A DNA stretch of 64,000 nucleotides from Candidatus Lustribacter sp. (GTDB lineage Bacteria > Vulcanimicrobiota > Vulcanimicrobiia > Vulcanimicrobiales > Vulcanimicrobiaceae). Shown piece by piece: positions 1,602 to 51,084 of the stretch. Each line of letters opens with the position of its first letter. Position 1 is the stretch's first letter. The notes beneath the pieces were generated by a model that was not told the DNA's origin, did no database searches, and was given only the letters and a program-made list of their open reading frames with translations. The DNA lies in NCBI GenBank assembly GCA_965277805.1, contig OZ255842.1:3616001-3680000 (forward strand), read 5' to 3'. The translations under genes and the position numbers were made by a program.

Positions 1602-2509
1602 GAAGCGGCGAGGTTCACGACGCGCGGGCGCAGCTTCAACTCGATCAGCACGCGTTCGTAGTCGGCCGCCGTGACTTCAGCCCACGTTTTTCCGAGCAGC
1701 GCGAGCAGTGCCGCCTCGACGACGTTCGTGCCGAACGAGCGGCCGTCGAAATCGGGCGTCGTCGTGACCAGCATCGCGACGCCGCGCGTGCGCAGCTCTT
1801 CGACGTCGTTGGCGGTGAGGGTATTGGTCAGCACCATCTTGCCGTCGAGCCGGTCTGGCATGTACTGCCGCATGAAGTGGAAGTCGCCGGCGATGATATC
1901 GGCGTCGTCGTAGTATTCGGGATACTTGGGCTCGGGCTTGCGGTCTTGCTTCTTGCCGGTGGGATAGAAGAACTGAAACGGCAGCTTGCAGGCATCGGGC
2001 AGATACTTGCGCGCCATCTCTTCAAATTCATCGAGGCCGCGCACCGGCCGGTCGAGATCGAGCGCGAAGATGAAATCTCCGAAGATCATGTCGGCCCCGG
2101 CCGCCACCAAGGCCTGCGCCATTCCGAACCGGTCGAGCGCGCTGACCATCAGCACGCGCTTCCCGCCGAGCTCCATCCCGAGTTCACGCTGCAGATACTC
2201 CACCGCTTCGCGCTCGAGCGTATTCTTGAGCCCGCTACCGTCGACCACCGGCGTCTTCTTCACCGCATTCAACAGCCGCAGCCCGTCTTTCAACGCGAAC
2301 CGCTGCGTGCCGGCATACAAATACACATCGATCCCGCCGAGCCCGATCGCATCGACCGTCCCATCCAACTCGCGCAACCGCTTGAGCGCGCGATCGATGC
2401 TCCCGTCCATCCCCTCCCGAGAAATAGCAAACTGCTCCCCCAACAACTCCACCATCGCCCGATGATCCCGCGACGAAGACCCGAGACTAACCGAAACAAT
2501 CGTCTTCAT
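1598..2509 (-). CDS. Conserved protein of unknown function (family often auto-annotated 'quinate 5-dehydrogenase')
   Basis: 303 aa, VSVSLGSSSRDH, GLGGID, VVDGSGLKNTLE, GRSFGTNVVEA; stop overlaps permease start. Confidence 0.7.
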   Translation of the reverse strand: MKTIVSVSLGSSSRDHRAMVELLGEQFAISREGMDGSIDRALKRLRELDGTVDAIGLGGIDVYLYAGTQRFALKDGLRLLNAVKKTPVVDGSGLKNTLEREAVEYLQRELGMELGGKRVLMVSALDRFGMAQALVAAGADMIFGDFIFALDLDRPVRGLDEFEEMARKYLPDACKLPFQFFYPTGKKQDRKPEPKYPEYYDDADIIAGDFHFMRQYMPDRLDGKMVLTNTLTANDVEELRTRGVAMLVTTTPDFDGRSFGTNVVEAALLALLGKTWAEVTAADYERVLIELKLRPRVVNLAAS

Positions 2510-2513
2510 TCCA

Positions 2514-2544
2514 TGTCATCCCGAGCTTGTCGAGGGACCGCCAC
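2514..2544 (+). repeat. REP-like dispersed repeat, copy 1
   Basis: TGTCATCCCGAGCTTGTCGAGGGACCGCCAC, identical to 40410-40440. Confidence 0.9.
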
Positions 2545-2549
2545 AATCT

Positions 2550-3659
2550 TCATCGTGTTGCCGCTTTTCGGGCGTCGGCGGCGGCGCGGGTGGCGGCGAT
2601 GCTTTCGGGGGAGATGACTTTGTCGAAGGCTCGCATGTCGGCGAGTTCGAAGCCGGCGCGGGCGGCGAGGGTATCGATTTCGCGGACTTTTTCGAGATTG
2701 ACGCCGCGTCCGACGGTGTAGGATTCGCAGCGGTTTTCGAGTGCGAGAACCATCGTTTCCGACATGCATGCAAGCGCGGTACCGGGTGATAGCGCGAGGT
2801 CGAAGTCGGTGCCGGGTTCGCGCACGCGTTCGGCCCGGAACGAACCCGGGACGCGCATGTTGCCGCCTTCGACGACCAGCACGTCGGGCCGCTCGAGTGC
2901 AACGCGGCGGCTCACATCGTGTGGCAGCGAAACCTCGCACACGACCGCGCCCGGGCGCAAATTCTCAGGCTCAATCACGTCCTGCGTAGACGATGTCGCG
3001 GTCAAGATGAGGTCTGATTCGCGCAACGCGGCGGCAAGATCGACCGTGTAGCGTAATTCGCACTTCACCCGCGGCTGCAAATCGGCCACGAGTGCCTTCA
3101 ATCGCGTCTCGTTTCGGGCGACACAAATCACCGTGTGGACGCGGTCCCCGATCAATTGCACGCAGGCCGCGCCGATCGACCCGGTCGCTCCCACTACAAC
3201 GGCCGTCGACGTTGCAACATCGATGCCCATCTCATCGGCGCCACGAAAGAGCCCGCGCACGGCCGCCGCGATCGTCAGCGAATTCCCGGTCGTCACCGGA
3301 ATCGGCGAACGTTCGGCAATCGTCACGCCGCCGTCACCGACGACGCCGGTAAAGGCACCGAGGCCGGCCACCTTCGCGCCAAGCGATACGCCCACGTCGA
3401 TCGCCGCGAGTATCCGCGCATACACATCATCGCGCGGAAACGCGAGCATCTGCTCCGGGAGCAAGGGCGCGGCAACGAACCAGCCTTCGGTTTCGCGCCC
3501 ATCCGGGGTTCGTATCCCGGTGAGGTGAGCCGCCGCATAGGCCGGCATCCACTCCAGGATCTTGGCCACGATCGGCTTCCCCTTGCCGGCCGCGCCCGGC
3601 TCGTAGCGGATCACGTCCTCGAACGACAGGGGATGGATAACGAAACAGAACGGGACCAT
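2550..3659 (-). CDS. Acyl-ACP/acyl-CoA reductase-like NAD(P)-dependent oxidoreductase (cyanobacterial AAR-like)
   Basis: LGAFTGVV, VTTGNSLT, VVVGATGSIG, ACMSETMVLALE..SYTVGR parallel AAR motifs LGGFTSI, TTGNTHT, VVGATGDIG, ACFAEAMLLEFE..FSWGR. Confidence 0.75.
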   Translation of the reverse strand: MVPFCFVIHPLSFEDVIRYEPGAAGKGKPIVAKILEWMPAYAAAHLTGIRTPDGRETEGWFVAAPLLPEQMLAFPRDDVYARILAAIDVGVSLGAKVAGLGAFTGVVGDGGVTIAERSPIPVTTGNSLTIAAAVRGLFRGADEMGIDVATSTAVVVGATGSIGAACVQLIGDRVHTVICVARNETRLKALVADLQPRVKCELRYTVDLAAALRESDLILTATSSTQDVIEPENLRPGAVVCEVSLPHDVSRRVALERPDVLVVEGGNMRVPGSFRAERVREPGTDFDLALSPGTALACMSETMVLALENRCESYTVGRGVNLEKVREIDTLAARAGFELADMRAFDKVISPESIAATRAAADARKAATR

Positions 3660-5395: not shown

Positions 5396-6408
5396 GACGC
5401 GACGGCGAATTCGCGCGGCGGCGCTTCGAGCGTGAGGATCGTCTCGGCCACGATGCGCAGCGTCTCGGCCGCGGTTTCCGTACGCATCAAGCGTTCGCGC
5501 AGCGCGCTCGCGCCGGGGAACCCTTTGAGGTAGTAGCCCAAGTGCTTGCGCATCTGCGGCACCGCGCGCGCTTCGCCCCACTCCTCGACCATCGCGTGAT
5601 AGTGGCGCACGGCAAAACGCAGTCGCTCCGGCGCGTTCGGAATGGCGTCGGGCTCGCGGCCTTCCATCAGCGCGCGCAGTTGGCCGACGAGCCAAGGATT
5701 GCCGAGCGTCGCACGGCCGAGCATCACGCCGTCGACGCCGCTCGCGCGCATCTTCGCAAACGCATCGCGCGCATCGGCGAGATCGCCGTTGCCGATGACC
5801 GGAATGTCGACCGCGCGTTTGAGCGCCGCAATGTGGTCCCAATCGGCCGAGCCTTTGTAGAACTGCTTCGCGGTACGCGCGTGCAGCGTCACGGCTTTGA
5901 TGCCGACGGCTTGCGCGCGCTTCGCGACTTCGACGTAAACGAGATCCGTCTCGCTCCAGCCCAGGCGCATCTTCATCGTGACCGGACAATCGACGGCCCC
6001 GACGACCGCACGCATGATCGCCTCGCAGCGGTCGACGTCGCGCAAGCAAGCACTGCCGCCTTCGGTCTTCGTCACCTTCGGCGCCGGGCAGCCGAAGTTG
6101 ATGTCGACGATGTCGGCGCCGCACTCGCGCACGAGCTTCGCGGCCTGCGTCATGATCGAGGGATCGTTCCCCCACAACTGCGTCGAGACAGGACGCTCTA
6201 CGCCGTGCTGGTCGATCATGTCCATCGTGCGTTCGTTCTTGTACTGCAGCGCGTTCGACGAGACGAATTCCGTGACGGTCAAACCGAAGCCGAACGGCTT
6301 GTAGAGGGCGCGCAGCGTCCGGTTCGTCACCCCGGACATCGGGGCAAGAACGATGGGTGGCCAGATGCTGATCGAGCCGATCTCGAGCGGCTTTACGGTG
6401 GGCGTCAC
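5392..6408 (-). CDS. dusB: tRNA-dihydrouridine synthase B
   Basis: LAPMSGVT, DINFGCP, TLHART, VIGNGD, MLGRA; start set at GTG 6408. Confidence 0.9.
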   Translation of the reverse strand: MTPTVKPLEIGSISIWPPIVLAPMSGVTNRTLRALYKPFGFGLTVTEFVSSNALQYKNERTMDMIDQHGVERPVSTQLWGNDPSIMTQAAKLVRECGADIVDINFGCPAPKVTKTEGGSACLRDVDRCEAIMRAVVGAVDCPVTMKMRLGWSETDLVYVEVAKRAQAVGIKAVTLHARTAKQFYKGSADWDHIAALKRAVDIPVIGNGDLADARDAFAKMRASGVDGVMLGRATLGNPWLVGQLRALMEGREPDAIPNAPERLRFAVRHYHAMVEEWGEARAVPQMRKHLGYYLKGFPGASALRERLMRTETAAETLRIVAETILTLEAPPREFAVAS

Positions 6409-6416
6409 AAGAGCGG

Positions 6417-6425
6417 ATTGTATCA
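6417..6425 (-). promoter_or_regulatory. Putative extended -10 (TGaTACAAT) of a leaderless dusB transcript
   Basis: Minus strand reads ggtgTGaTACAATccgctcttGTG; 8 nt to GTG; no SD. Confidence 0.5.
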
Positions 6426-6448
6426 CACCGAGGGCGTACGGCGCGAAC

Positions 6449-7090
6449 GTGAGCGATTCGCCGAATCCGCCGACCCTGCTGAGCCTCATCGTGGCGTTCG
6501 CGAACATCGGACTCACCAGCGTCGGCGGCGCCGGCGGCCCCCTGCGCTACGTCGTCGTCAAGCAGCGCCGCTGGCTCTCCGAAGGCGCGCTGGCCGAACT
6601 TTTCGGCGTCGCGCAGGCACTGCCGGGCGCGACGGCCGTCAACATCGCGGTGATGTTCAGCGACCGTGCAGTGGGCCCGCTCGGTCCGCTCGCAGCGCTC
6701 TTCGGCCTGATCGTTCCCTCGCTGATCATCGCGATCGCCCTGGCCGGCATTGCCACGCAACTCGCGGCGGTCAACTACCGTTTCGCGGCAGCCGAAGTCG
6801 GCGTGACCGCGGCCGTCGCCGGCATCTTTATCTCCAACGGCTTCCGCGTCATGGGTCAGCTGTGGAGCGAAACGCCCGACCTCCAGCTCGTGTGGCGTAG
6901 CTCCCGCGTCGCGATCAGCGCGCTCGGCATCGTCATGGTCGCCGGTTTCCACATCTTCATCCCGTTGACGATGGTGGTACTCGTAACGCTCAGCCTGCTG
7001 CTGGAATGGCGCATCCCCCGTAATCCCGAGCTTGTCGAGGGACCGCCACCCGTCGACCCCATCGACCCGATCGACGAGAAGCAGTCATGA
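6449..7090 (+). CDS. chrA: Short-chain chromate transporter (CHR) subunit 1
   Basis: IGLTSVGGAGG, AQALPGATAVN; GTG start at 6449. Confidence 0.8.
   Translation: MSDSPNPPTLLSLIVAFANIGLTSVGGAGGPLRYVVVKQRRWLSEGALAELFGVAQALPGATAVNIAVMFSDRAVGPLGPLAALFGLIVPSLIIAIALAGIATQLAAVNYRFAAAEVGVTAAVAGIFISNGFRVMGQLWSETPDLQLVWRSSRVAISALGIVMVAGFHIFIPLTMVVLVTLSLLLEWRIPRNPELVEGPPPVDPIDPIDEKQS
7019..7050 (+). repeat. REP-like repeat, copy 2, in-frame inside chrA 3' end
   Basis: cgtaATCCCGAGCTTGTCGAGGGACCGCCACC encodes RNPELVEGPPP. Confidence 0.85.
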
Positions 7091-7617
7091 TCGGTGAGCT
7101 ACAGCAACTCTGGACGCTAGCGCTGCACTTCGCGCTGATCTCGTTCTTCGCAGTCGGCGGCGGCGTCAGCATGCTCGTCCCGCAGATGCATGCGGAGTTC
7201 GTTCAACAATTCCACTGGCTCAGCGAACGCTCGTTCCTCGAATTGCTCGCGGTCGCGCAAGCCGCGCCGGGCCCGAACTTCCTCTTGGTGCCGCTGATCG
7301 GCTATCGCGTCGCCGGCTGGCCCGGCGCCATCGTCAGCATCACCGGGTTCCTGATTTTCCCGGTCATCATCTCGTTTTGCGTCGGACGCATCTTACATCA
7401 GCACGAAAACGAATGGATCGTCCGCTTCCGCCGCGGCTTCCGCCCCGTCACCGGCGGTCTCTGGATCGCCTCGGGCCTCGTCGTCGCCGCTACCGTCGAC
7501 CACAGCCCCGTCCCCATCATCGTCACCGTCGCCGTCGCCATCATCTCGGTCATCATCGACATCAGCCCGATCTGGTGGTGCATCATCGCCGGCGTCGCCG
7601 GCTACGCACTCGCATAA
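7087..7617 (+). CDS. chrA: Short-chain chromate transporter (CHR) subunit 2
   Basis: SFFAVGGG, AQAAPGPNF, IGYRVAGWPGA; ATGA overlap with subunit 1. Confidence 0.85.
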   Translation: MIGELQQLWTLALHFALISFFAVGGGVSMLVPQMHAEFVQQFHWLSERSFLELLAVAQAAPGPNFLLVPLIGYRVAGWPGAIVSITGFLIFPVIISFCVGRILHQHENEWIVRFRRGFRPVTGGLWIASGLVVAATVDHSPVPIIVTVAVAIISVIIDISPIWWCIIAGVAGYALA

Positions 7618-8118
7618 GTGTTTGATTATCAGCCGCACCTGAGCGGTGAATTGCTGACGATGCGTCCCGTGACGCAGGCGGACTACAAGGCGCTCTCGCG
7701 GCTCGGCCACGACCCGGGTGTCTGGGAACTGCATCCGGAGAGCGACCGCTATCAAGAACCGCGCTTCGCTGAATACTTCGCCGAGGGCTTAGCATCGGGC
7801 GGCGCACTCGTCGCCGTCACCAAGGAGACGGGCGCCATCGCCGGCTGGTCGCGCTTCTCGAGCGACAATGTTGGGCCGGACGAAATCGAGATCGGCTGGA
7901 CGTTCCTCGGCCGCGCCTACTGGGGCGGCGCCTACAACCGCGACATGAAGCGCATGATGCTCGCCCACGCGTTCCGCTACGTCAACCGCGTGATCTTCCG
8001 CATCGGCCCCACGAACTGGCGCTCCCGCCGCGCCGTAGAAAAACTCGGCGCCATCCTCATCAAACAAACGGAATCACGAGTCATTTATGCACTGACTGCA
8101 GCCCTAAATTGTCATTAG
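7618..8118 (+). CDS. GNAT N-acetyltransferase (RimJ/RimL-like)
   Basis: EIGWTFLGRAYWGG, N.RSRRAVEKLG. Confidence 0.85.
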   Translation: MFDYQPHLSGELLTMRPVTQADYKALSRLGHDPGVWELHPESDRYQEPRFAEYFAEGLASGGALVAVTKETGAIAGWSRFSSDNVGPDEIEIGWTFLGRAYWGGAYNRDMKRMMLAHAFRYVNRVIFRIGPTNWRSRRAVEKLGAILIKQTESRVIYALTAALNCH

Positions 8119-8131
8119 TTTGTGTTTAGAT

Positions 8132-8178
8132 TGTCATTCCGAGCAGCGCCGTAGGCGCGTCGACGAGGAACGCGCCAC
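8132..8178 (+). repeat. REP-like repeat, variant copy 3 with internal GCGCC-gta-GGCGC hairpin
   Basis: TGTCATTCCGAGCagcgccgtaggcgcgtcgacGAGGaacgCGCCAC shares both ends with the 31-bp consensus. Confidence 0.7.
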
Positions 8179-8213
8179 GATCTATAATCTCGAGTGCGAT
8201 GCGCGAAGGCGCG

Positions 8214-8254: not shown

Positions 8255-9199
8255 CTATGCGAAGCCGGAGGCGATTATTTCTGAGGCCATGACTGGGCGT
8301 TCGATGACTTTGTAGCGCGCTGCCATGTCCAGCAAAGGTTGGATGTAGGCGGGGTTTAGGGATGTGGAGAGTGGGTTGCGCTGCATGGTGTGGACGACGG
8401 CCGGGTCGACTTTGGTGATGCCGGCTTCAACGGTTGCGGACTCGGCTTTGTGGGTGTTGGCCCATTTGCCGGCTTGGTAGAAGGCGGATGCGAGCGAGTG
8501 CGCGAGGTCGGTGTTGGCGGCGATCCAATCGCGGCGCGCAAACCAGCCGAAGATGTAGAACAGTTTTGCGACCGTGTCGAACGGCACGCCGATCGGACGG
8601 ATCGCGTCTTTGTTTTCCGTGAGGAACGGCTCGCCGATCAGCGCCGCATCGACCGTGCCGCGGGTCAGTCCCGGCGTCATCTCGGGGAAGTGGAGCTCGA
8701 AAAACTTTACCTGCGACGCATCCGCGCCGTTCTTCGTGAGCCATTCCCGCGTCGTGATCTCCATCGTCGCGTGCAGGCTGATGATCGCGACGGTCTTGCC
8801 TTCGAGATCCTTGGCGGTCTTGATCGGGCTGTTCTTGGCGACGTTCAGCACCAGGGTCGGTGCATCGCGCGAGGAGAGCGGGCCTCCGGCAAAGTATGCG
8901 AACGGCAAGCCTTTCACGTACGCTTGCGCGATCGCCGTCGGGTCGACCATGCCGATGTCGATCGCGCCGGCCGCCAGCGCTTCGGCGTAGGCGCCCGGGT
9001 TGGCGGCGTGCACGATCTCGTAGTCGATGTTCAGCTTCTTGAACAACCCGAGGTTCTCGGCGTAGTACGGCTGCATGAACGCATCGTCGATGCCCGCACC
9101 GATACGCACGTGCCGGTTCGTTTGCGCGCGGGCGGGAAACGCCGTAAAGGCGAGCGGCGCAGCAGCCGCGAGCCCGAGCGCGTGGCGGCGCGAGATCAT
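8255..9199 (-). CDS. ABC substrate-binding protein, SsuA/THI5-like, Tat signal
   Basis: MISRRHALG twin-Arg; KDLEGKTVA, GTVDAALIGEPF; ATG overlaps Rieske stop. Confidence 0.85.
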   Translation of the reverse strand: MISRRHALGLAAAAPLAFTAFPARAQTNRHVRIGAGIDDAFMQPYYAENLGLFKKLNIDYEIVHAANPGAYAEALAAGAIDIGMVDPTAIAQAYVKGLPFAYFAGGPLSSRDAPTLVLNVAKNSPIKTAKDLEGKTVAIISLHATMEITTREWLTKNGADASQVKFFELHFPEMTPGLTRGTVDAALIGEPFLTENKDAIRPIGVPFDTVAKLFYIFGWFARRDWIAANTDLAHSLASAFYQAGKWANTHKAESATVEAGITKVDPAVVHTMQRNPLSTSLNPAYIQPLLDMAARYKVIERPVMASEIIASGFA

Positions 9200-10473
9200 C
9201 GCGGCACCAGCGTCTTCGTCGCGTCGCGCCAACCCGTCTTGTAGTCGACGCTGTCGGGGATGATCGCCGAGATGACGGCGATATCGCTCATGTCGTTGTC
9301 GGCCTCGCTGCGCACGACGTGCGGCGGCGTTTCGCCCTTCTGCACGCCGCGAATCGCATCGATGATGAGGCGGCGCGCGGTGGTAATGCAGACGTCGCTT
9401 GTGGCCAGATGCTCGCGCGTGCGGTCGTGAATCGGGCCCGGCGATTCGGTCGCGAAGGCGTCTTGCGCGGGAAAGTACGGCCCCATGCCGCTGAACGTCT
9501 TGGTCTTCATCTCATCGCGATCTTGGAGATAGCGATTCGCGGCGTTGCGCACGAGGAAGCCGTCGGGACGGATTTCGCCCGCCATCGTGGCTTCGCTGAA
9601 CTCTTTGTTCGGCGCGTGGTGGCGGTTGAAGACGTAGTCGATGCGCATGTGCGTTACGTCGTCCACCGGCACGTGCCAGTGCGCGCTGTAGCCCTCGCCG
9701 ATGCGGCCCTCGTTGCCGATGATCGCGGCCATGTGCGGCAAGATGTAGTTCGTGATGCGAAGGTAGCGCTTGTCGGGCCCGGCGCGCCGCACCGAGAAGT
9801 TGCGCATCCCGTAGTGCGTCTTCTCGACCTCGAGTTTCGGCGCCGAATCGACCTTGTAGAGCTGATCGGCCGGCACGCTGCCGCCCGGAACGGGCCGCGT
9901 GTCGACCTTCCCGATCGGCACGTGCAGATAGGAGAGATGCGAGGGATCGATCTCGCCTTCGAGCGACTGCAGCCAGTTGCAGTTAAGGAACGTGCGGGTG
10001 AGCAGCCGGTGCTCCTCGCCGTAGCTGAAGAACTCGTAGTTGGGCAAGAGCGGCGGATCGTCCGTGCCCAAATACGCGAAGATCAGGCCGCCGCGCTCTT
10101 CGCACGGATAGGCGAGATGGCGCACTTTGTCTTTGTACGTGCTCTCGGGCGGCTCGGCCGGCATCTCGAGCACGCGGCCCGCGATGTCGTAGAGCCAACC
10201 GTGGTAGAGACAGCGCAAACCGCCGTTTTCGACGCGCCCGTAGCTCAGATCGGTGCAGCGATGCGCACACAACAGGCCGAGCAACCCCGCCCGGCCGGCA
10301 TCGTCGCGGAAGAGCACCAGATCCTCGCTGAGGATGCGGACCGGTTTGGGGGCGCCGCCGGGCGGCAGTTCCGATGTGAGCGCGATCGGATGCCAGTACT
10401 TGCGCATGAACGCGCCGCCCGGCGTGCCGGGGCCGGTCTGCGTGACGAGATCGTTTTCTTCTTTGGTCAGCAT
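9196..10473 (-). CDS. Rieske non-heme iron oxygenase alpha subunit (phthalate 4,5-dioxygenase/LigXa-like)
   Basis: CAHR...CLYHGW Rieske motif; EGEIDPSHLSYLH iron site; GPGTPGG N-terminus. Confidence 0.9.
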   Translation of the reverse strand: MLTKEENDLVTQTGPGTPGGAFMRKYWHPIALTSELPPGGAPKPVRILSEDLVLFRDDAGRAGLLGLLCAHRCTDLSYGRVENGGLRCLYHGWLYDIAGRVLEMPAEPPESTYKDKVRHLAYPCEERGGLIFAYLGTDDPPLLPNYEFFSYGEEHRLLTRTFLNCNWLQSLEGEIDPSHLSYLHVPIGKVDTRPVPGGSVPADQLYKVDSAPKLEVEKTHYGMRNFSVRRAGPDKRYLRITNYILPHMAAIIGNEGRIGEGYSAHWHVPVDDVTHMRIDYVFNRHHAPNKEFSEATMAGEIRPDGFLVRNAANRYLQDRDEMKTKTFSGMGPYFPAQDAFATESPGPIHDRTREHLATSDVCITTARRLIIDAIRGVQKGETPPHVVRSEADNDMSDIAVISAIIPDSVDYKTGWRDATKTLVPR

Positions 10474-18278: not shown

Positions 18279-18566
18279 ATGCGCGGAACGCCGAGAAAAC
18301 GATTCACCCTGATGCCGCTGATCGCGATCGCAGGCCTCAGCCTGGTGGTCACGCTGCCCGCACTCTCCGCCACTCAGCTCCACGCCGCCAAGCCGGTCAC
18401 GTACACGAACGTGACGGTCAAGTCGGGCGACAGCCTGTGGAATCTGGCCGACGATCGCACGCCCCGCGGCGGCGACGTCCAAGCGACGGTCGACGCAATC
18501 ATCGCCGTCAACCACCTCCACGGCGCCGAGATCGCCCCCGGCCAGCACCTCAGCATCCCCCAATAA
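18279..18566 (+). CDS. yneA: TM + LysM protein, YneA-like SOS division inhibitor
   Basis: Hydrophobic N-terminus then VTVKSGDSLWNLA...IAPGQHLSIP; divergent from lexA. Confidence 0.75.
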   Translation: MRGTPRKRFTLMPLIAIAGLSLVVTLPALSATQLHAAKPVTYTNVTVKSGDSLWNLADDRTPRGGDVQATVDAIIAVNHLHGAEIAPGQHLSIPQ

Positions 18567-18608
18567 CTTCGCCCTAGGGCACAAGCCGCGGTCGGACCGC
18601 CGGCCAGG

Positions 18609-18640
18609 AAAGGAGCCGTATCAAGCACGGCTCCTTTTTC
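18609..18640 (+). terminator. Rho-independent terminator
   Basis: AAAGGAGCCGT-atcaagc-ACGGCTCCTTTTTC. Confidence 0.85.
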
Positions 18641-18667
18641 TATTCGGTCGGCACTAAAAGGGCAACG

Positions 18668-18698
18668 TGCTCGGCACGGCGCTCCGCTCGGAATGACA
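18668..18698 (-). repeat. REP-like repeat, variant copy 4 (reverse orientation)
   Basis: Minus strand TGTCATTCCGAGCggagcgccgtgccgagca, similar to copy 3. Confidence 0.65.
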
Positions 18699-18727
18699 CG
18701 CATCTGGGCCACGCCTCTTTGGTCGCG

Positions 18728-19888
18728 CTATTTTGACCAAAGCTCCGCCGAGGCGAGTTTGGCGCCTTCGACGAGTGATTGGAATTTGGCCCAGACGATC
18801 GTCTCGTGGATTTCGGGGACGCCGCCGGGATTGGTGGCGAAGCCGCAGTCGCTGCCGGCGATCACGCGCTCTTTGCCGAGGGTGCGGGCGTAGCGGATGA
18901 TCCGTTGCGAGACGACTTCGGGGTGCTCGACCAGCGGGCTCGTGTGGGTGATCACGCCGGGAATAATGAGCGCGTCGTCGGGCAGCTTGGCCTCGCGCCA
19001 GAGCTTCCATTCATGTTCGTGCCGCGGGTTCGCGGCCTCGAACGAGAACGCGCCGGCCTTGACGCTCATCACGAGGTCGACGAAGTGCTTGAGTTCGAGA
19101 TCCGAGGTGCGCGGCCCGATGTTGATGCCGTAGCAGGTGTGGTAGCGGATCTTCTCCTTCGGGATATCGCGAACTGCATGGTTGAGCGCCTCGACGCGCA
19201 GCGTTCCCCATTTCACCACGTCCGCGACGGTTGAATTGGGATCGACCATGTAGTGCATGGCGAGGAACGGGTCGTCGAGCTGCAAGATGAAGCCCGCGTC
19301 GACGATAGCGTGATACTCGTGGCGCATTGCATCGGCGATCGCGAAAAGATACTCGTCGTCTTTTTTGTAGTAGCTGTTCTTCTGCCAGCCTTCGACGCTT
19401 GCCGGCGAGGCGCTCGGTACGAACACGTCCGCGACCGGCTTGCCGGCCGTGGCACGCTTGAGGTTCGCCAAGTCGCGCTTGAGCTGCGCGTCGCCCTTGT
19501 AGGTGATCGGCCCCGTGCAGATCACGCTGTCGACGTGACCGCCCGGACCGCGGTGCTCCGCGTAGTATTCCGGAAAGTTGAGCAGCTCGCGCGAGCCGGC
19601 AAACGGAACGCGCCCGGGCGGCGTCGGAAAGGGCTCGTAGCCGCCGAGCCGCTCGTTCAGATACGCGATAAAACCGGCCTTCGACTGCTCGCCATCATCG
19701 ACGACATCGATCCCGAGTGCGACTTGCTTTTCGACGATCGCATCGACCGCGTCGGCGACGGCCGCATCGTATTTCAAATCCGACACATCGACGCCGCGCG
19801 CCCGTTTCATTGCCAGATCGACCAGCGCGTCCGGCCGCGGCAAACTGCCGGTGTGCGTCGTGAGTATCCGTTCAGTGCTGCGTGTCAT
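18728..19888 (-). CDS. Cobalamin-independent methionine synthase II family protein
   Basis: THTGSLPRP, DGEQSK, HTCYG, AGSDCGF zinc ligands; single catalytic barrel. Confidence 0.85.
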   Translation of the reverse strand: MTRSTERILTTHTGSLPRPDALVDLAMKRARGVDVSDLKYDAAVADAVDAIVEKQVALGIDVVDDGEQSKAGFIAYLNERLGGYEPFPTPPGRVPFAGSRELLNFPEYYAEHRGPGGHVDSVICTGPITYKGDAQLKRDLANLKRATAGKPVADVFVPSASPASVEGWQKNSYYKKDDEYLFAIADAMRHEYHAIVDAGFILQLDDPFLAMHYMVDPNSTVADVVKWGTLRVEALNHAVRDIPKEKIRYHTCYGINIGPRTSDLELKHFVDLVMSVKAGAFSFEAANPRHEHEWKLWREAKLPDDALIIPGVITHTSPLVEHPEVVSQRIIRYARTLGKERVIAGSDCGFATNPGGVPEIHETIVWAKFQSLVEGAKLASAELWSK

Positions 19889-21079: not shown

Positions 21080-21109
21080 GGTCCGACATATATCGCATCA
21101 CCCGGCATT

Positions 21110-21163
21110 TGTCATCCCGAGCTCGTCGCTGTCATTCCGAGCTGGTCGAGGGACCGCCACCAG
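21110..21163 (+). repeat. REP-like repeat, tandem partial + full copies (5/6)
   Basis: TGTCATCCCGAGCTCGTCG-c-TGTCATTCCGAGCTGGTCGAGGGACCGCCACCAG. Confidence 0.85.
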
Positions 21164-39881: not shown

Positions 39882-40406
39882 ATGGCGCTCCAAGTACGCG
39901 ACCTGACGATCGCCGGTGCCCGCGTATTCACCCCCGATGTGTTCCGGGACGAACGCGGATATTTCAAAGAAATTTACACAACCTCGAAATACCGGTCGCT
40001 CGGCATTCCCGACGAGTTCGTTCAGGACAGCGTCTCGTTTTCCACCAAGAACGTGCTACGCGGTTTGCACGGCGATCCGGAGATGAGCAAACTCGTGACC
40101 GTGCTCGCCGGCAAGGTGTGGGACGTCATCGTCGACGTGCGCAAAGACTCACCCACCTATAAGAAGTGGGAAGGCCTCGAACTGAGCGGCGACAACCACG
40201 CGCAACTCTACATCCCGAAGGGCTGCGCGCACGGATTCCTCACGCTCACCGATAACGTCGTCTTCGCCTACAAACACGGCGCGCTGTACGACCCGCAACG
40301 CGAGTTCGCATACCGGTGGAACGACCCGGCGTTCGCAATCACGTGGCCGCTCACCGGCGACCCGATCCTCTCCCCCAAAGACCGCGCAGCGCCGCTCTTC
40401 GAGTAG
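39882..40406 (+). CDS. rfbC: dTDP-4-dehydrorhamnose 3,5-epimerase
   Basis: DERGYF, VLRGLH, DVRKDSPT, GCAHGF, WNDP. Confidence 0.95.
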   Translation: MALQVRDLTIAGARVFTPDVFRDERGYFKEIYTTSKYRSLGIPDEFVQDSVSFSTKNVLRGLHGDPEMSKLVTVLAGKVWDVIVDVRKDSPTYKKWEGLELSGDNHAQLYIPKGCAHGFLTLTDNVVFAYKHGALYDPQREFAYRWNDPAFAITWPLTGDPILSPKDRAAPLFE

Positions 40407-40409
40407 TCT

Positions 40410-40443
40410 TGTCATCCCGAGCTTGTCGAGGGACCGCCACCAG
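40410..40443 (+). repeat. REP-like repeat, copy 7
   Basis: TGTCATCCCGAGCTTGTCGAGGGACCGCCACCAG. Confidence 0.9.
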
Positions 40444-40471: not shown

Positions 40472-40504
40472 TCTAGGATGGTGCCCACTCTCGCAGAGGG
40501 ACGG

Positions 40505-41137
40505 ATGATCATCGAAGAGGCCGCCGACGAGCAGCTCGTCGGCCAGATACTTGCCGGAGACCGGGACGCTTTCGCTCTCCTGGTCGAGCGGTATAAGCGT
40601 GGAATCGCGAATTTTATCGGCGCGGGCGTTCGCTCGTCCTCGGACGTGGCGGATCTAACCCAGGAGACGTTTCTCCGGGCCTACGCCCATTTGGGGACTT
40701 ACAACGCCGAGCTCGGCCGGTTCTCGACCTGGCTCTACCACATCGCCCGCAACGTCGTGCGGACGTTCCTCGGCCGCTCGCAGCGCCGCCCCGTGGCCGC
40801 CGAGCTCGGCGAGGACCGCACGCTCGAGAACAGCCTGCCCGACGCCTCGGCCGATGCCGACCCGATGGGCGGGGTGCTGCGCAGCGAAGCCGAGGCCGAA
40901 GTGCGCGCCGCACTGGCCGATCTGCCGGAACGCACGCGCACGGTGCTCGCGCTGCGCTACTACGACAACATGGATTACCAGTCGATCGCGACCACGATGG
41001 GTCTCTCGCTCGGCAACGTCAAGACGCTGATCCATCGCGGCAAACTCGCGCTTGCGCAGAAGTTCCGCGAACGCGAAGCCGCCGCCGTTGCGGGCGCCGG
41101 CATTATACGGGGACACGGTGATCTGCAGCTGGTGTGA
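40505..41137 (+). CDS. ECF RNA polymerase sigma factor
   Basis: DLTQETFLRA, FSTWLYHIARN, GNVKTLIHRGK; alternative ATG at 40478. Confidence 0.9.
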   Translation: MIIEEAADEQLVGQILAGDRDAFALLVERYKRGIANFIGAGVRSSSDVADLTQETFLRAYAHLGTYNAELGRFSTWLYHIARNVVRTFLGRSQRRPVAAELGEDRTLENSLPDASADADPMGGVLRSEAEAEVRAALADLPERTRTVLALRYYDNMDYQSIATTMGLSLGNVKTLIHRGKLALAQKFREREAAAVAGAGIIRGHGDLQLV

Positions 41138-46942: not shown

Positions 46943-48817
46943 GTGCACGCTAAATCGTGGATGTTCTACGCCGCGACGGCCATCCTCGCGTTTCTCGGCG
47001 CATTCTTCATCATGCACCTGTGGGACATGCATCTGAACGTCCCGCTCTACTTTGCCCGCGGCGGCGACGAGTTACCGACGCTGGTTTGGGTCAAAGCGAT
47101 GATGGACGACGGGTGGGTCAATACGATCACGCACCTCGGTGCACCAACCGCCCTTTCGACCGGCGATTTTCCGGTCACGGCGCTCGTCCATCTCGGCGTT
47201 CTCAAAATTCTGACGCTCATCGTGCACGACGTCGGAACCGCGATCAACCTGTATTTCATCGCGGGCTTCTCGCTGATTGCGATATCGAGCGCTTATGTCT
47301 TGCGACGCTTCGGCATCTCGTGGCCGGCGGCGATGATGGTTTCCGTCGTATACGCGCTGTTGCCGATGCGTTTCTATCGCAACGAAGCGCATCTTCCGTA
47401 CGGACAATACTTTCTCTATCCCATCCTTGCGCTCGCGACGCTTTGGATCTACCGGGGCGAACGGCTATTCGACGCGAGCAAGCGACGCCCAACCCGCGAC
47501 GGCTACATTTATCTCATCGGGCTCGTTGCCGTCGCGTGGGATAACCCGTTGCTCGCGGCCTTCGCGATTATGATCCTCGCGCTGGCGGGACTAGCATCGG
47601 CGATACGGACGCGCACGTGGAAAGGCGCGATGACCGCCGTAGCCGGCGTCGTGCTTCTCGTCGTTGCATTGGAAGCGAGCATGCTTCCGAACATACTCTA
47701 CGTCAAGCAGCACGGCAAGAACCCCGTCGCGATGGCCTACTCGGGAGAAGGCACCGAGCTTTACGCCTTGACGCTGCCCCAACTCGTGTTACCGATTCAG
47801 TCACATCGCATTCCGGCTCTTGCGCAGGTACGTGCTCGCTTCGATTCGGGCATACCGATGTTTTCGAACGAAAACAGCTCGGCCACGCTCGGGCTCCTGG
47901 CGACGCTCGGCTTCGTAGGATCGATTGTTGCATTTCTGCTGTTCCGGGCCAACGCGTTCGAGGCACTCTGGCCCGATCTCGCGCGGCTCAACATCGCCAC
48001 GTTTCTCTTGATCACCATTGGGTCAGTCGGCGCGCTGATCGGATTCTATTTCGAGCCCGACCTTCGCGGCTACAACCGGTACTCGCCGATGATCGGATTC
48101 CTATCGCTCGCGACCGTTGCAATCGCGCTCGACGCGATCCGGCGACGCTGGCCGGAAACGCGCGCTCGGGACGGCGCCTGGATCGCAGCGCTGCTCCTCA
48201 TCGGCGTGCTCGCGATCCTCGATCAAACCTCCGACGCGTTTGTCCCGGCATACGCAGCCGATCTTCAAGCCTACACCGGGGATGCGCACTATGCGGCGGT
48301 GCTCGAGAAGCACTTCGCCCCGAACGCCGCCCTCTATCAGATCCCATACGTGCCGTTCCCCGTCTGGCCCACCGTCGTGAACCTCGGGTCGTGGGAACAG
48401 ACGGCGCTCTATTTGCATTCGACCACCCTGCGGTACAGCTACGGTTCGACGAACGGACGCCCCAGCGGTGAGTGGCAAGAGTACGTTGCCGCCCAAGACC
48501 CGCGGCAGTTTCTCGAACAGATTATCCTCGGCGGCTTCGACGGCGTTCTCGTGTATCGTCGCGGCTATAAGGACAACGGCGCCGCGATCGAAAAAGACCT
48601 CGGCTCGCTGCTGCGCCAAACGCCGATCGTCCGCGACGACGGCACGATTGCAGCCTACGATATCAGCAAACTACAAGCAAGCTACGAAGCCCGCGCCGGC
48701 ACGGCGCTTGTAGATCACGTGCGGACAGAATTGCTGACGCCCAAAGTCGACTGGGATACGTCGCTGACAGCGGCGACGAAAATCGTCGACCAGCTGCTCG
48801 CGGAGACGTCCCGTTGA
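46943..48817 (+). CDS. Polytopic membrane protein, GT-C-like (paralog A)
   Basis: GGDE after TM1; many TMs; C-terminal extracellular domain; GTG 46943 with SD GGGGA. Confidence 0.6.
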   Translation: MHAKSWMFYAATAILAFLGAFFIMHLWDMHLNVPLYFARGGDELPTLVWVKAMMDDGWVNTITHLGAPTALSTGDFPVTALVHLGVLKILTLIVHDVGTAINLYFIAGFSLIAISSAYVLRRFGISWPAAMMVSVVYALLPMRFYRNEAHLPYGQYFLYPILALATLWIYRGERLFDASKRRPTRDGYIYLIGLVAVAWDNPLLAAFAIMILALAGLASAIRTRTWKGAMTAVAGVVLLVVALEASMLPNILYVKQHGKNPVAMAYSGEGTELYALTLPQLVLPIQSHRIPALAQVRARFDSGIPMFSNENSSATLGLLATLGFVGSIVAFLLFRANAFEALWPDLARLNIATFLLITIGSVGALIGFYFEPDLRGYNRYSPMIGFLSLATVAIALDAIRRRWPETRARDGAWIAALLLIGVLAILDQTSDAFVPAYAADLQAYTGDAHYAAVLEKHFAPNAALYQIPYVPFPVWPTVVNLGSWEQTALYLHSTTLRYSYGSTNGRPSGEWQEYVAAQDPRQFLEQIILGGFDGVLVYRRGYKDNGAAIEKDLGSLLRQTPIVRDDGTIAAYDISKLQASYEARAGTALVDHVRTELLTPKVDWDTSLTAATKIVDQLLAETSR

Positions 48818-51084
48818 GCAGAACTCGCGTCGGCCCCTACATTTGGAGCGCGCTCGTTGCGTTGATCGGCGCCGTCGTCGTCATGCACCTGTGGCACATG
48901 CGCGTCGGCATCCCGCTCTACTACAGCCGCGGCGGCGAAGAGCTGATGGTCCTTACGTGGACGAAGGCGATGCTCGACGGCGGATGGTACGGCACGATCG
49001 CGCACCTCGGCGCGCCGTTTGCGATGTCAACGGCCGACTATCCGCTCCCGGACCTGCTGCACACCCTGGTGCTGCGCGTCATCACCCTTGTGGTGCATCA
49101 CGCACCGGTTGCCGTGAACCTTTACTTCATCGCGGGCTTTCCGTTGATCGCACTGGCCGGCACCTACGCTCTGCGGCGTCTGGGCGTCTCGTCGGGCGCG
49201 GCCGTTGCGATGTCGGTCATCTACGCGCTGTTGCCGTTTCGCTTCATGCGCAACGAAGGGGCCCTGTTCGCCTCTCAGTACTACATCCTGCCGCTGCTGG
49301 TGCTCGCAGTTGTCTGGGTTCTGCGCGAACACGCGCTGTTCGATCCGGGCCGCCGCAGGCCGACGCGAGACGGCTACATCTTTCTCGTAAGCCTGCTCGC
49401 GCTCTCGTGGGATAACACCTACGATGCCGCCTTCGGCGTGATGCTTCTCGCCTTCGCGGCGGCGGCGTCGTATGCACGCACGCGCGCTTGGCGCGGCGCA
49501 GCGGCGGCGCTCGTGGGGATCATCGTGATCTTCGCCGGTGCCGAGATCGAACTTCTGCCGTCGACCATCTACCAGCTCCAGCACGGCAAGGATGCCGCCA
49601 TCGTCTCCCTAGCGCCGCAGACATCCGAGTATAACGCGTTGACGCTGGCGCAACTCGTCCTCCCGATCCAGAACCACCGCATCCCGAAACTGGCTCGCAT
49701 GCGGGCGAAGTTTGATTCGGGGCTTGTTGACTTTATCAACGAGAACTCCTCAGCCACGCTCGGAGTGGTGGGCGCGCTGGGCTTTCTCGGCACCTTGGCG
49801 GCGCTGCTGCTCGTGCGCACCGAGCGCGACGGCGATCTGTGGCCCGAGCTCTCGCGATTGAATCTAGCGATGTTTTTCATCGCGACCATCGGCGGGGTGG
49901 GGGCGCTGATCACGTACTATCTCGTTCCACAGCTGGATCTCTACAATCGCATCTCGCCGCTGATCGCCTTCGTTTCTCTGGCGGCGGTCGCGCTCGTTCT
50001 CGATACGATCCGGCGACGCCGGCTCGCGGAGTGGAACGGCGTGTGGGCGATGGGCCTCACGCTTTTGACGGCGGTTGCGATCTTCGATCAAACCTCAGCC
50101 ACCTACGTGCCGAACTATAACGCCGACATTCAAGCGTATAACGCTGATACCGGATTCGCGACAATGCTCGAAAGCCGCCTCGGGCCCAATGCGCAGGTGT
50201 ATCAGTTACCGCACGTCGCGTTCCCGAGCATCGCCCCAGTCGAGCGGCTCCAACCCTGGGACCAAACGGCGCTCTACCTGCAATCGCACACCCTGCACTA
50301 CAGCTTTGGGACGACCGTCGGGCGCAAAGACGACGATTGGCAACTCGCCACGAACGCGCTGCCCTTGCATGCATCGCTCATGGAACTCGTACTTGCCGGG
50401 TTCCAGGGCATCGTGGTCTACACAGCCGGCTACGCGGACAACGGGAACGCCGAGATCGGCGCGCTATCATCGCAGCTGGGAACCGACCCGGTCCTTCGCG
50501 ACGACCGCATGGCCGCGTTCTTCGACCTCAGCAAGCTGCACGCGCGCTACATCGCGGCCGTCGGAGCCGATAAGGCGGCCTCCGTACGCGCGACGATCAT
50601 TCACGCCGTACCCGGCGGCATCCAGCATCCGCCTGAGGACATTGCTATGGCAATGGGTACGGCCGGGCGATTACTCGACGCGGTGAGCACGCCGCCGGCG
50701 ACGGCAATCGACGTCACCTTCGCGGCGGGCTGCTACGCGCCGGAGCGAAACGCCACATCGGATTGGCATTGGTGCGGCAACTCAGCCCTCCTGACACTTC
50801 TGAACCATGGCCCGGCGCAACGCATCGTGCTGAAGTACACGTTGACAACCGGCGCGCCGGCGCAGGTGACGGCTGCCGCAAATGGGACGCGCGCAATACT
50901 CGAGGGTTCGCCGCAAGGAAGTTCCGTCAATGAAACACTCCTCGTTCCGCCCGGACGAACCGCCCTGCGGCTCACCACCAGCGCGCAGCCCATCGCGGCA
51001 CCCGCCGATCCGCGCCGTCTTACGATGCAAATTGCGAATTTACGGGTATTTCAAACACACGCAGGTAACGTAACACCGCCTTGA
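48814..51084 (+). CDS. Polytopic membrane protein, GT-C-like (paralog B, extra C-terminal beta domain)
   Basis: GGEE after TM1; shared blocks with paralog A (QLVLPIQ.HRIP, NENSSATLG). Confidence 0.6.
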   Translation: MSRTRVGPYIWSALVALIGAVVVMHLWHMRVGIPLYYSRGGEELMVLTWTKAMLDGGWYGTIAHLGAPFAMSTADYPLPDLLHTLVLRVITLVVHHAPVAVNLYFIAGFPLIALAGTYALRRLGVSSGAAVAMSVIYALLPFRFMRNEGALFASQYYILPLLVLAVVWVLREHALFDPGRRRPTRDGYIFLVSLLALSWDNTYDAAFGVMLLAFAAAASYARTRAWRGAAAALVGIIVIFAGAEIELLPSTIYQLQHGKDAAIVSLAPQTSEYNALTLAQLVLPIQNHRIPKLARMRAKFDSGLVDFINENSSATLGVVGALGFLGTLAALLLVRTERDGDLWPELSRLNLAMFFIATIGGVGALITYYLVPQLDLYNRISPLIAFVSLAAVALVLDTIRRRRLAEWNGVWAMGLTLLTAVAIFDQTSATYVPNYNADIQAYNADTGFATMLESRLGPNAQVYQLPHVAFPSIAPVERLQPWDQTALYLQSHTLHYSFGTTVGRKDDDWQLATNALPLHASLMELVLAGFQGIVVYTAGYADNGNAEIGALSSQLGTDPVLRDDRMAAFFDLSKLHARYIAAVGADKAASVRATIIHAVPGGIQHPPEDIAMAMGTAGRLLDAVSTPPATAIDVTFAAGCYAPERNATSDWHWCGNSALLTLLNHGPAQRIVLKYTLTTGAPAQVTAAANGTRAILEGSPQGSSVNETLLVPPGRTALRLTTSAQPIAAPADPRRLTMQIANLRVFQTHAGNVTPP

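Follow-up and report, generated by a model that had tools for sequence, protein, structure and literature searches.

Strand skew flips at short repeats resembling Ssn-related motifs in a Candidatus Lustribacter chromosome: a possible footprint of outward repair synthesis

Introduction

A short oriented repeat, present in seven copies along a 64-kb stretch of the genome of Candidatus Lustribacter sp. (contig OZ255842.1, positions 3,616,001 to 3,680,000; the whole stretch is hereafter called the window), marks, at five of its six sites, places at which the strand composition of the chromosome changes sign. The closest described systems are the Ssn nucleases and their target motifs. SsnA is a single-domain GIY-YIG nuclease of single-stranded DNA, and the motifs associated with it are named NTS and Ssn-related motifs (SRM) (Chenal et al. 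2025, PMC11893778). In Neisseria, NTS (CGTCATTCCCGCGMAVGCGGGAATCYRG) and SRM motifs flank a 94-aa GIY-YIG nuclease. According to the main text of that paper, the motif is bound solely as single-stranded DNA and is cut a few bases upstream, on the motif-bearing strand only, with cleavage depending most on the three bases that precede the palindrome (PMC11893778). The role described for Ssn is the restriction of transforming single-stranded DNA. Ssn nucleases, together with hundreds of genomic target motifs, are also described outside Neisseria, where their biological role is stated to be unknown (PMC11893778).

The Discussion of the same paper reports that genes beside dRS3 repeats in Neisseria meningitidis show raised divergence between strains, which is attributed to recombination (PMC11893778). 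As in the window, coding sequence next to such repeats evolves unlike the rest of the genome, although the dRS3 finding concerns between-strain identity and not strand composition, and the word 'skew' does not occur in the main text of that paper. Among the literature matches listed, titles and abstracts give no evident report of local skew at REP, REPIN, dRS3 or Ssn motifs. None of the REP or RAYT papers listed has 'GC skew', and the listed publications that contain both 'GC skew' and 'dRS3' are, by title, genome papers on Neisseria lactamica. Literature containing the core 12-mers of the repeat, judged by titles and abstract openings, includes none on bacterial repeats.

Skew flips at the repeats

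The window is 64% G+C and 96% coding. Gene calling with a codon model trained on the window itself yielded 65 genes, the majority of which are ordinary chromosomal genes by their Pfam matches. A sequence-only reading of this DNA had claimed, from hand counts of 60-nt segments, that G/C skew flips at REP-like repeats even between co-oriented genes. All 11 of its counts were exact on recount, its seven repeat copies were all recovered, and gene calls and Pfam agree with the gene orientations it gave. Across the window, G-C per 60 nt has a standard deviation of 5.0, and the segments at 2401 (-24) and 8341 (+25) are the two extremes of all 64 kb. Five further hand-counted segments lie in the outer 1.5% tails, and those at 8041, 21181 and 40561 are unremarkable (G-C percentiles 0.07, 0.88 and 0.83).

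Within the window, the association of skew flips with the repeats is confirmed as lying beyond chance. We express the flip as F, the value of G-C in the right arm minus that in the left, with both arms directly adjoining the repeat. At five of the six repeat sites, F has p<0.05 against all window positions (top 0.1-5%; arms of 120, 200 and 300 nt). When ranked among 65 junctions, the repeat sites take places 1, 2, 3, 5, 9 and 43 with 60-nt arms, 1, 2, 3, 4, 6 and 28 with 120-nt arms, 1, 2, 3, 5, 6 and 46 with 200-nt arms, and 1, 2, 3, 5, 8 and 36 with 300-nt arms (Mann-Whitney p against other junctions of 0.001, 0.0003, 0.0012 and 0.0006, respectively). A position-blind scan with 200-nt arms places each of its top five peaks on a repeat site: 2533 (F = 80, the window maximum), 8170 (53), 18730 (51), 21181 (46) and 40408 (44). 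This outcome of all five on repeats is specific to 200-nt arms; with other arms, repeats account for three of the top nine peaks (100 nt), four of the top seven (150 nt) and four of the top five (300 nt).

The flip also survives the comparison with repeat-free gene junctions proposed in the sequence-only reading, being absent there. At ten repeat-free junctions matched for spacer length (>=40 nt), F(200) runs from -13 to +20. The five intact copies give 32 to 79 and exceed all ten at both 120- and 200-nt arms. The sole copy without a flip is copy 2, which lies inside a gene and was already set apart in the sequence-only reading; it ranks between 28 and 46 of 65 at arms of 60-300 nt, and its head is GTA instead of GTC.

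A skewed block also lies away from the repeats. The sixth-highest peak of the scan (F = 42) belongs to a G-rich block at 60308-60551, inside the aminotransferase gene 60211-61368, and is accompanied by a matching negative peak of -46.

Anatomy of the flip

The flip resides at silent codon positions. Pooled over the five sites with 150-nt arms, F is 131 at third positions and 33 at positions 1 and 2, even though the latter comprise twice as many sites; the flip thereby passes the check at synonymous sites set in the sequence-only reading. At copies 1, 3 and 4, third and 4-fold sites hold the flip (p 0.001-0.019), whereas positions 1 and 2 give p of 0.1-0.6. Third-position TA skew flips the same way, by 31, 19, 9, 11 and 10 at the five sites against 1.7 +/- 5.5 at other junctions. 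Around each of these repeats there is a zone of about 600 bases that passes from C-rich to G-rich at silent positions.

The geometry is best seen on the outward strand, that is, the strand running 5'->3' away from the repeat. As claimed for G, the strand whose 5' end faces the repeat is G-rich on each side; it is also T-rich. In successive 90-nt bins, pooled third-position GC skew on this strand is 0.40, 0.43, 0.27, 0.10, 0.08 and 0.00, and TA skew is 0.64, 0.63, 0.38, 0.13, 0.05 and 0.12. Left and right decay profiles are similar, and the flip is gone by ~300 nt. Gene orientation is immaterial, since the flip occurs at two -/- junctions, one +/+ junction and two convergent junctions, as is the orientation of the repeat, with the reversed copy 4 flipping in the same sense as the others. 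The paired flanks of one site shift alike (Pearson r=0.86, n=5, p=0.06).

Codon composition changes accordingly at gene ends. Over the last 66 codons of the seven gene 3' ends at the five flipping sites, third positions are A 0.14, C 0.61, G 0.21 and T 0.04, compared with A 0.10, C 0.44, G 0.33 and T 0.12 at other gene ends. The gene at 1598-2509, which has its 5' end at copy 1, shows the mirror image in its first 66 codons (G 0.53, T 0.26, C 0.21, A 0), and this 5'-adjacent block is shifted as strongly as the 3'-adjacent blocks. Among two-fold codons, the 3'-adjacent blocks have C:T of 76:10 and A:G of 36:28, against 2929:1234 and 911:1713 window-wide, so the shift includes transitions in the predicted sense.

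Three other sources of the pattern were rejected. Extended palindromes, in which the left flank would be the reverse complement of the right, reach a best identity of 0.36-0.40, where the null gives 0.36-0.38. Errors of sequencing or assembly beyond hairpins are ruled out, since only third positions are affected and neither the reading frames nor the Pfam domains are disrupted. Antisense open reading frames (ORFs) across the repeats (for example, 1877-2617 on the + strand) are mismatched in phase and have arginine-rich translations.

Third-position C (C3) is also abundant in two genes between copies 2 and 3. The ChrA C-half and the GNAT acetyltransferase gene (7087-8118, +) have the strongest whole-gene C3 preference of the window (GC4 skew of -0.45 and -0.30), and the last 66 codons of gene 7087-7617 have third-position G minus C (G3-C3) of -50 though no repeat adjoins them.

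Identity of the repeat

The core of the repeat, GTCATYCCGAGC, has eight matches in the window at <=1 mismatch, compared with 1.4 expected, and eight were reached by none of 100 shuffles. Seven of these are the repeat copies (Table 1); the eighth, at 283-294 within a permease gene, is probably due to chance. A head of GTCAT followed by YCC is present in six of the seven copies. Copies 1, 2, 6 and 7 additionally share TKGTCGAGGGACCGCCAC and carry CCC-GAGCTTGTCGA-GGGA-C, and the likeness of copies 3, 4 and 5 is limited to a 12-13-nt head.

By these features, the repeats appear to be a local variant of the Ssn-related motifs, short hairpin motifs with a GTCAT head. Like NTS (CGTCATTCCCGCGMAVGCGGGAATCYRG, compared by eye), they have a GTCAT head, then a short C-rich/G-rich palindrome, then a C, and the oriented layout of a GTC(A/T) head, short palindrome and conserved C after it is found in the window repeat (cf. 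PMC11893778). They further resemble SRM, as that paper's main text presents them, in being extragenic, oriented, multi-copy and spread across phyla, and in that the window copy mutated in the trinucleotide preceding the palindrome behaves differently. However, the published SRM string, HGTCWYN(0-2)YYVSBRHN(0-5)WNVSBRGN(0-2)RNCYNB, has no match on either strand of the window and matches none of the seven copies; their stem has A where the string needs B. We therefore term the repeat an SRM-like variant, an unproven member of the class. It also differs in ending in ...GGGACCGCCAC rather than ...GGGATCTC, and in folding weakly.

The label 'REP-like' used in the sequence-only reading overstates the palindrome. 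Predicted DNA folding of the copies gives -2.2 to -11.2 kcal/mol (z of +0.80 to -0.91), and between 36 and 157 of 200 shuffles fold as well or better. The palindrome is thus not a stable one, and the repeat is no classic REP. The repeat shares with REP and REPIN elements a short length, an extragenic position and a placement downstream of genes, but differs from REP/REPIN-RAYT systems in lacking a stable palindrome and in that no RAYT was found. Rfam searches of the window give no family at gathering score, with chance-level matches only (E 2.9-4) at two repeats.

The flips had been likened to miniature replication origins. Strand asymmetry at origins, and the Pol I footprint by the ColE1 origin, produce an excess of G and T on the strand leaving the start 5'->3', and the ColE1 footprint also spans a few hundred nt. 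The flips in the window have the same sign. Unlike origins, they are local (+/-300 nt) and recur at five places within 64 kb, against a background of flat large-scale skew: cumulative GC skew drifts by just -0.22 over 64 kb, with no switch and no origin features.

The repeat in other genomes

A scan of one genome per species with a 23-nt pattern, the window's own genome not being among the loci, gave at least 127 loci spanning Verrucomicrobiota, Chloroflexota, Kiritimatiellia, Eremiobacterota, Firmicutes, Bacteroidales, candidate phyla and others. The consensus elsewhere is GTCATCCCGAGCTTGTCGAGGGATCTC (147 sites among the matches listed). It often forms inverted doublets, 130-190 nt apart, a further likeness to REPINs. 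Some 12-nt cores are fortuitous: at ~4840 of locus L038 (also in L039 and L040) the core is a chance occurrence within the coding sequence for ELGMT of an aldo/keto-reductase-like ORF. Matches to the 12-mer alone thus include false positives, and counts of the 23-mer are safer.

In several of these genomes the motif adjoins a nuclease gene. Pfam finds GIY-YIG domains in 2 of 93 repeat-flanking ORFs, and tblastn brings the total to five loci in five genomes (among the matches listed), in all of which the ORF lies within ~60 nt of the motif. The five proteins are single-domain, share 45-63% mutual identity and come from genomes of three phyla; among solved structures, that of the UPF0213 protein BH0048 is nearest. 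The presence of a window-type motif beside GIY-YIG genes of 94-97 aa is thus another likeness to the SRM system. A RAYT (Y1) transposase was found neither in 66 window proteins nor in the 93 flanking ORFs scanned elsewhere, which were drawn from 140 candidates after 47 ORFs >450 aa were left out. The sequence-only reading had proposed a RAYT/HUH or GIY-YIG nuclease encoded elsewhere; the GIY-YIG half of this holds for the repeat family, by its SRM-like architecture and the five loci, and no RAYT was found.

Two arrangements of the motif stand apart. At loci L022 and L053, the GIY-YIG gene lies between two motif copies, as in an insertion sequence. A 6.8-kb Aquilonibacter contig has tandem arrays of 5-7 copies at ~35-nt spacing at both ends (L023:7-202 and L024:3981-4201); the array may be genuine, or the assembly may have broken at the repeat.

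Possible causes of the flip

Symmetry that is blind to gene direction, smooth decay over ~300 nt and the null at the copy with a mutated head together suggest that a process acts on DNA with the motif as its centre. We speculate that this process is repair synthesis directed away from the motif, which has left a mutational footprint specific to this lineage, an explanation that we prefer tentatively and at less than even confidence. Each copy with an intact head would be a recurrent start of repair synthesis, running outward for up to ~300 nt on both sides and triggered by a nick, or by a break followed by resection and fill-in. The outward-running strand, whether newly made or displaced, would gain G and T over evolutionary time. 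Purifying selection would clear changes at codon positions 1 and 2, leaving a scar visible only at silent third positions.

The sign of the skew, with the strand whose 5' end faces the repeat rich in G+T, fits outward synthesis. Enrichment via G.T mispairs makes a nascent strand G+T-rich, and deamination of C and A does the same to a displaced strand. The opposite sign is predicted if resected 3' tails left by a break are deaminated, if gaps form at a fork behind a lagging-strand polymerase that has stalled, or if sense transcription is responsible, and on this reasoning we rejected all three. Integration of transforming DNA cut by Ssn, with a strand bias, was likewise rejected, since it would be one-sided or dependent on orientation, and neither is seen. 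It is possible, if rather unlikely, that an Ssn-type nuclease, or another enzyme at the motif, acts on the resident chromosome besides incoming DNA, and that the motifs start outward synthesis in this way.

Several results weigh against a footprint of repair synthesis. The evidence comprises five sites in one 64-kb window of one genome, and at two of these (copies 5/6 and copy 7) the flip is insignificant at 4-fold sites (p 0.15-0.73). Shifts upstream (0.199) and downstream (0.180) of the motif are equal, though Ssn enzymes cut one strand. Changes at 4-fold sites are mainly a G-to-C exchange (C from 44 to 64%, G from 41 to 22%), for which transitions alone are insufficient. The 277 nt of non-coding spacer beside the repeats are nearly unskewed (outward G81/C76, T66/A54), where a neutral footprint is expected to be strongest, unless these spacers are constrained by hairpins or young. 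Further, the 64-kb window contains no nuclease or ssn gene.

The lack of replication at sites in other genomes weighs on the same side. Across 114 sites of the 23-mer in 62 other genomes (among the matches listed), mean F(200) is -0.2 with a standard deviation of 16.9; F is >=32 at six sites and <=-32 at three, and no genome with four or more sites trends positive. Pooled outward skew is ~0 at 109 sites elsewhere, ten of them in Eremiobacterota (among the matches listed). A z normalised by locus averages -0.19 (81 sites) and -0.14 (79 sites) elsewhere, and reaches 2.2 at most; computed by the same script, it is 1.9-6.4 at the window copies. In high-GC loci elsewhere, 35 repeat-adjacent gene 3' ends are not C-rich (p=0.6). 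One result runs counter to this: at 17 repeat-adjacent 5' ends in such loci, G-C is +5.2, against -5.0 at other 5' ends (p=0.007; third positions p=0.001), a result to which we give little weight, as starts were taken as the first start codon and the controls are mostly internal to operons. Among the nearest relatives available, one Eremiobacterota metagenome-assembled genome has F(200) of 12, 29 and 0 at three sites, values that point neither way. The RmlC orthologue on an Elarobacter contig is unskewed in its last third (C25 G22, versus C32 G13 here, over 53 aligned codons), and at ~50% identity it is too distant for a substitution spectrum.

The nicking and repair-synthesis footprint put forward in the sequence-only reading therefore stands in part: the sign, the geometry and the null at the mutated-head copy agree with it, and the unskewed spacers, the null elsewhere and the equality of both sides do not. 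What we observe directly is the link between flips and repeats, the geometry of the flip, its confinement to third positions, and the repeat's kinship with nuclease-associated motifs. Given the null at 114 sites elsewhere, the unskewed spacers, the one-strand cut of Ssn enzymes and the missing nuclease gene, we infer, and do not observe, a mutational cause, the action of a nuclease here and the direction of synthesis.

Selection on transcripts is the alternative that survives best, though we consider it unlikely. The 200-300 nt ahead of a repeat, C/A-rich and G/U-poor in each RNA that enters it, would form an unstructured, rut-like tract for loading Rho, shaped by adaptive codon choice, and repeat and upstream tract together would terminate or attenuate transcription. 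REP-type elements are able to cause Rho-mediated attenuation. Of the ten skewed flanks, seven are gene 3' ends, and selection of this kind yields the base pattern seen there. Over the final 198 nt of repeat-adjacent 3' ends, mean G-C on the coding strand is -24 (n=7, counting copy 2) against -3.4 +/- 10.9 at others (n=53), and G3-C3 over the last 66 codons is <=-20 at five of seven such ends and at two of 53 others. Avoidance of G with preference for C also accounts for the gain of A and loss of T at third positions, and a shift restricted to coding third positions, with little skew in spacers, fits such selection at least as well as it fits mutation. However, the block with the strongest skew of all lies at a 5' end, that of the downstream gene at copy 1, whose G/U-rich RNA is useless to a rut model, and copy 1 occupies a 40-nt spacer within an apparent operon. 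The spacers themselves are not C-rich on the transcript strand, a tract of ~270 nt is long for a rut site, and the 35 repeat-adjacent 3' ends elsewhere (among the matches listed) are ordinary. Nor is C enriched at five 3' ends that lack a repeat and have spacers >=40 nt (G-C of +22, -11, +6, +4 and -21); together with the ten repeat-free junctions, which show no effect, they led us to reject a confounding of repeats with operon ends. A scan for intrinsic terminators gave 19 against 14.5 expected in 20 kb, an uninformative excess.

A preference in insertion or retention, whereby a mobile motif lands or survives where C-rich meets G-rich sequence and the skew is the cause, is improbable. Such a preference would account for unskewed spacers, possibly brought by the element, and for a one-strand nuclease alongside a two-sided pattern. 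It would leave the smooth decay centred on the repeat as a coincidence, and copy 2 lies at a junction without skew. The same motif shows no such preference in the 62 other genomes (among the matches listed). We know of no transposition mechanism that reads composition over 300 nt, which also counts against it.

Transcription-associated mutation has a lower probability still. Bidirectional promoters in or beside the repeat would expose the outward non-template strand and render it G+T-rich, in agreement with the sign and the two-sided symmetry. Copy 3 does have two divergent promoter-like sites (8160-8188, +, and 8137-8108, -; two of three such sites in 20 kb), but a consensus scan found none at copies 1, 4, 5/6 and 7, with a consensus that may not suit this phylum, and strong, short antisense RNAs would be required.

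Equally doubtful is a coincidence of heterogeneous local causes: convergent genes whose codons end in C, a signal peptide with many codons that start with G, alanine-rich tails, and few sizeable spacers able to host a repeat. Coding strands here do favour C3 over G3 (skew -0.12), so that a positive flip is the default between convergent genes. At copies 5/6, the third-position flip is weak and comes partly from positions 1 and 2 in the signal-peptide region of a binding protein, and the right flank of copy 7 is ordinary (percentile 0.83). Yet four repeat-free convergent junctions have a mean F of -3 to +12.5, depending on the arm, and a maximum of 21, compared with 35-78 at the two that carry repeats. 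The blind scan put its top five peaks on repeats, the decay with distance is smooth and symmetric, and F>=32 is reached at six of 114 sites elsewhere (among the matches listed) against five of six here.

Implications

If the flips are mutational, they would be the first evolutionary read-out of Ssn-type motifs being processed in the chromosome. Outward repair synthesis at the motif, if true, would mean that scar size records how long and how often each copy was cut, and that one base change in the motif head switches the scar off. This would offer a purely computational assay of active copies and lineages, and would mean that codon usage in neighbouring housekeeping genes can be altered by a short repeat across several hundred bases. 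If transcripts are instead selected for C-rich ends, this class of repeat would be linked to transcription termination in a high-GC lineage about which little is known. Skew-based origin finders, as well as codon-usage screens for horizontal transfer, could be misled by local skew anomalies as large as these.

Features and neighbouring genes

The repeat copies, the skewed blocks beside them and the GIY-YIG ORFs found in other genomes are collected in Table 1.

Table 1. Coordinates of repeat copies and skewed blocks in the window, and of GIY-YIG ORFs at loci elsewhere (prefixed by locus)
Feature	Coordinates	Strand	Core match	Remarks
Repeat copy 1	2510..2545	+	2515 (+)	Core GTCATCCCGAGC; occupies entire 40-nt spacer between two minus-strand genes
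Repeat copy 2	7012..7049	+	7020 (+), 1 mismatch	Mutated core GTAATCCCGAGC; within C-terminal tail of ChrA N-half ORF 6353-7090
Repeat copy 3	8128..8180	+	8133 (+)	Long variant with inner GC hairpin; between convergent GNAT 7618-8118 (+) and NMT1-like 8255-9232 (-)
Repeat copy 4	18660..18700	-	18697 (-)	Reversed; between convergent 18200/18312-18566 (+) and MetE-like 18728-19888 (-)
Repeat copies 5 and 6	21106..21160	+	21111 (+), 21131 (+)	Truncated copy, then full copy 20 nt on; between two minus-strand genes
Repeat copy 7	40406..40440	+	40411 (+)	Between RmlC 39882-40406 (+) and ECF sigma factor gene 40478-41137 (+)
C-rich (+ strand) block at copy 1	2119..2501	-		First ~130 codons of gene 1598-2509, no Pfam family; holds the extreme 60-nt segment (-24)
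G-rich (+ strand) block at copy 1	2552..2768	-		NAD-binding, shikimate-DH-like gene 2550-3659, last ~70 codons; third positions on the coding strand: C 0.68, A 0.24, G 0.03, T 0.05
C-rich block at copy 3	7953..8118	+		GNAT gene 3' end
G-rich (+ strand) block at copy 3	8255..8544	-		NMT1-like gene 3' end; most G-rich 60-mer of the window (+26)
C-rich block at copy 4	18327..18605	+		Most of the small + gene to the left
G-rich (+ strand) block at copy 4	18728..18940	-		MetE-like gene 3' end
C-rich block at copy 7	40155..40406	+		RmlC 3' end, inside conserved domain
GIY-YIG ORF	L002:3668-3955			Single-domain, 94-97 aa (all five ORFs)
GIY-YIG ORF	L022:4143-4436			
GIY-YIG ORF	L025:4049-4330			
GIY-YIG ORF	L048:139-423			
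GIY-YIG ORF	L053:4124-4405	-		

Several local features accompany the repeats. At copy 1, the reverse complement of the repeat head, GGGATGAC (2507-2520), lies 9 nt ahead of the ATG of gene 1598-2509 and, by its sequence, could be the ribosome-binding site of that gene. At copy 2, the Pfam domain of the ChrA N-half (6353-7090, +) stops at residue 210 of 245, the repeat encodes residues ~220-232, and the stop codon overlaps the start of the ChrA C-half gene (7087). In the spacer of copy 4, a hairpin at 18618-18650 is flanked by an A-run and a T-run (AAAGGAGCCGT...ACGGCTCCTTTTT) and looks like a bidirectional intrinsic terminator between the convergent genes. Elsewhere in the window, two adjacent large paralogues without a Pfam family (46943-48817 and 48814-51084, both +) share an 89-nt stretch of 76% identity near their 5' ends.

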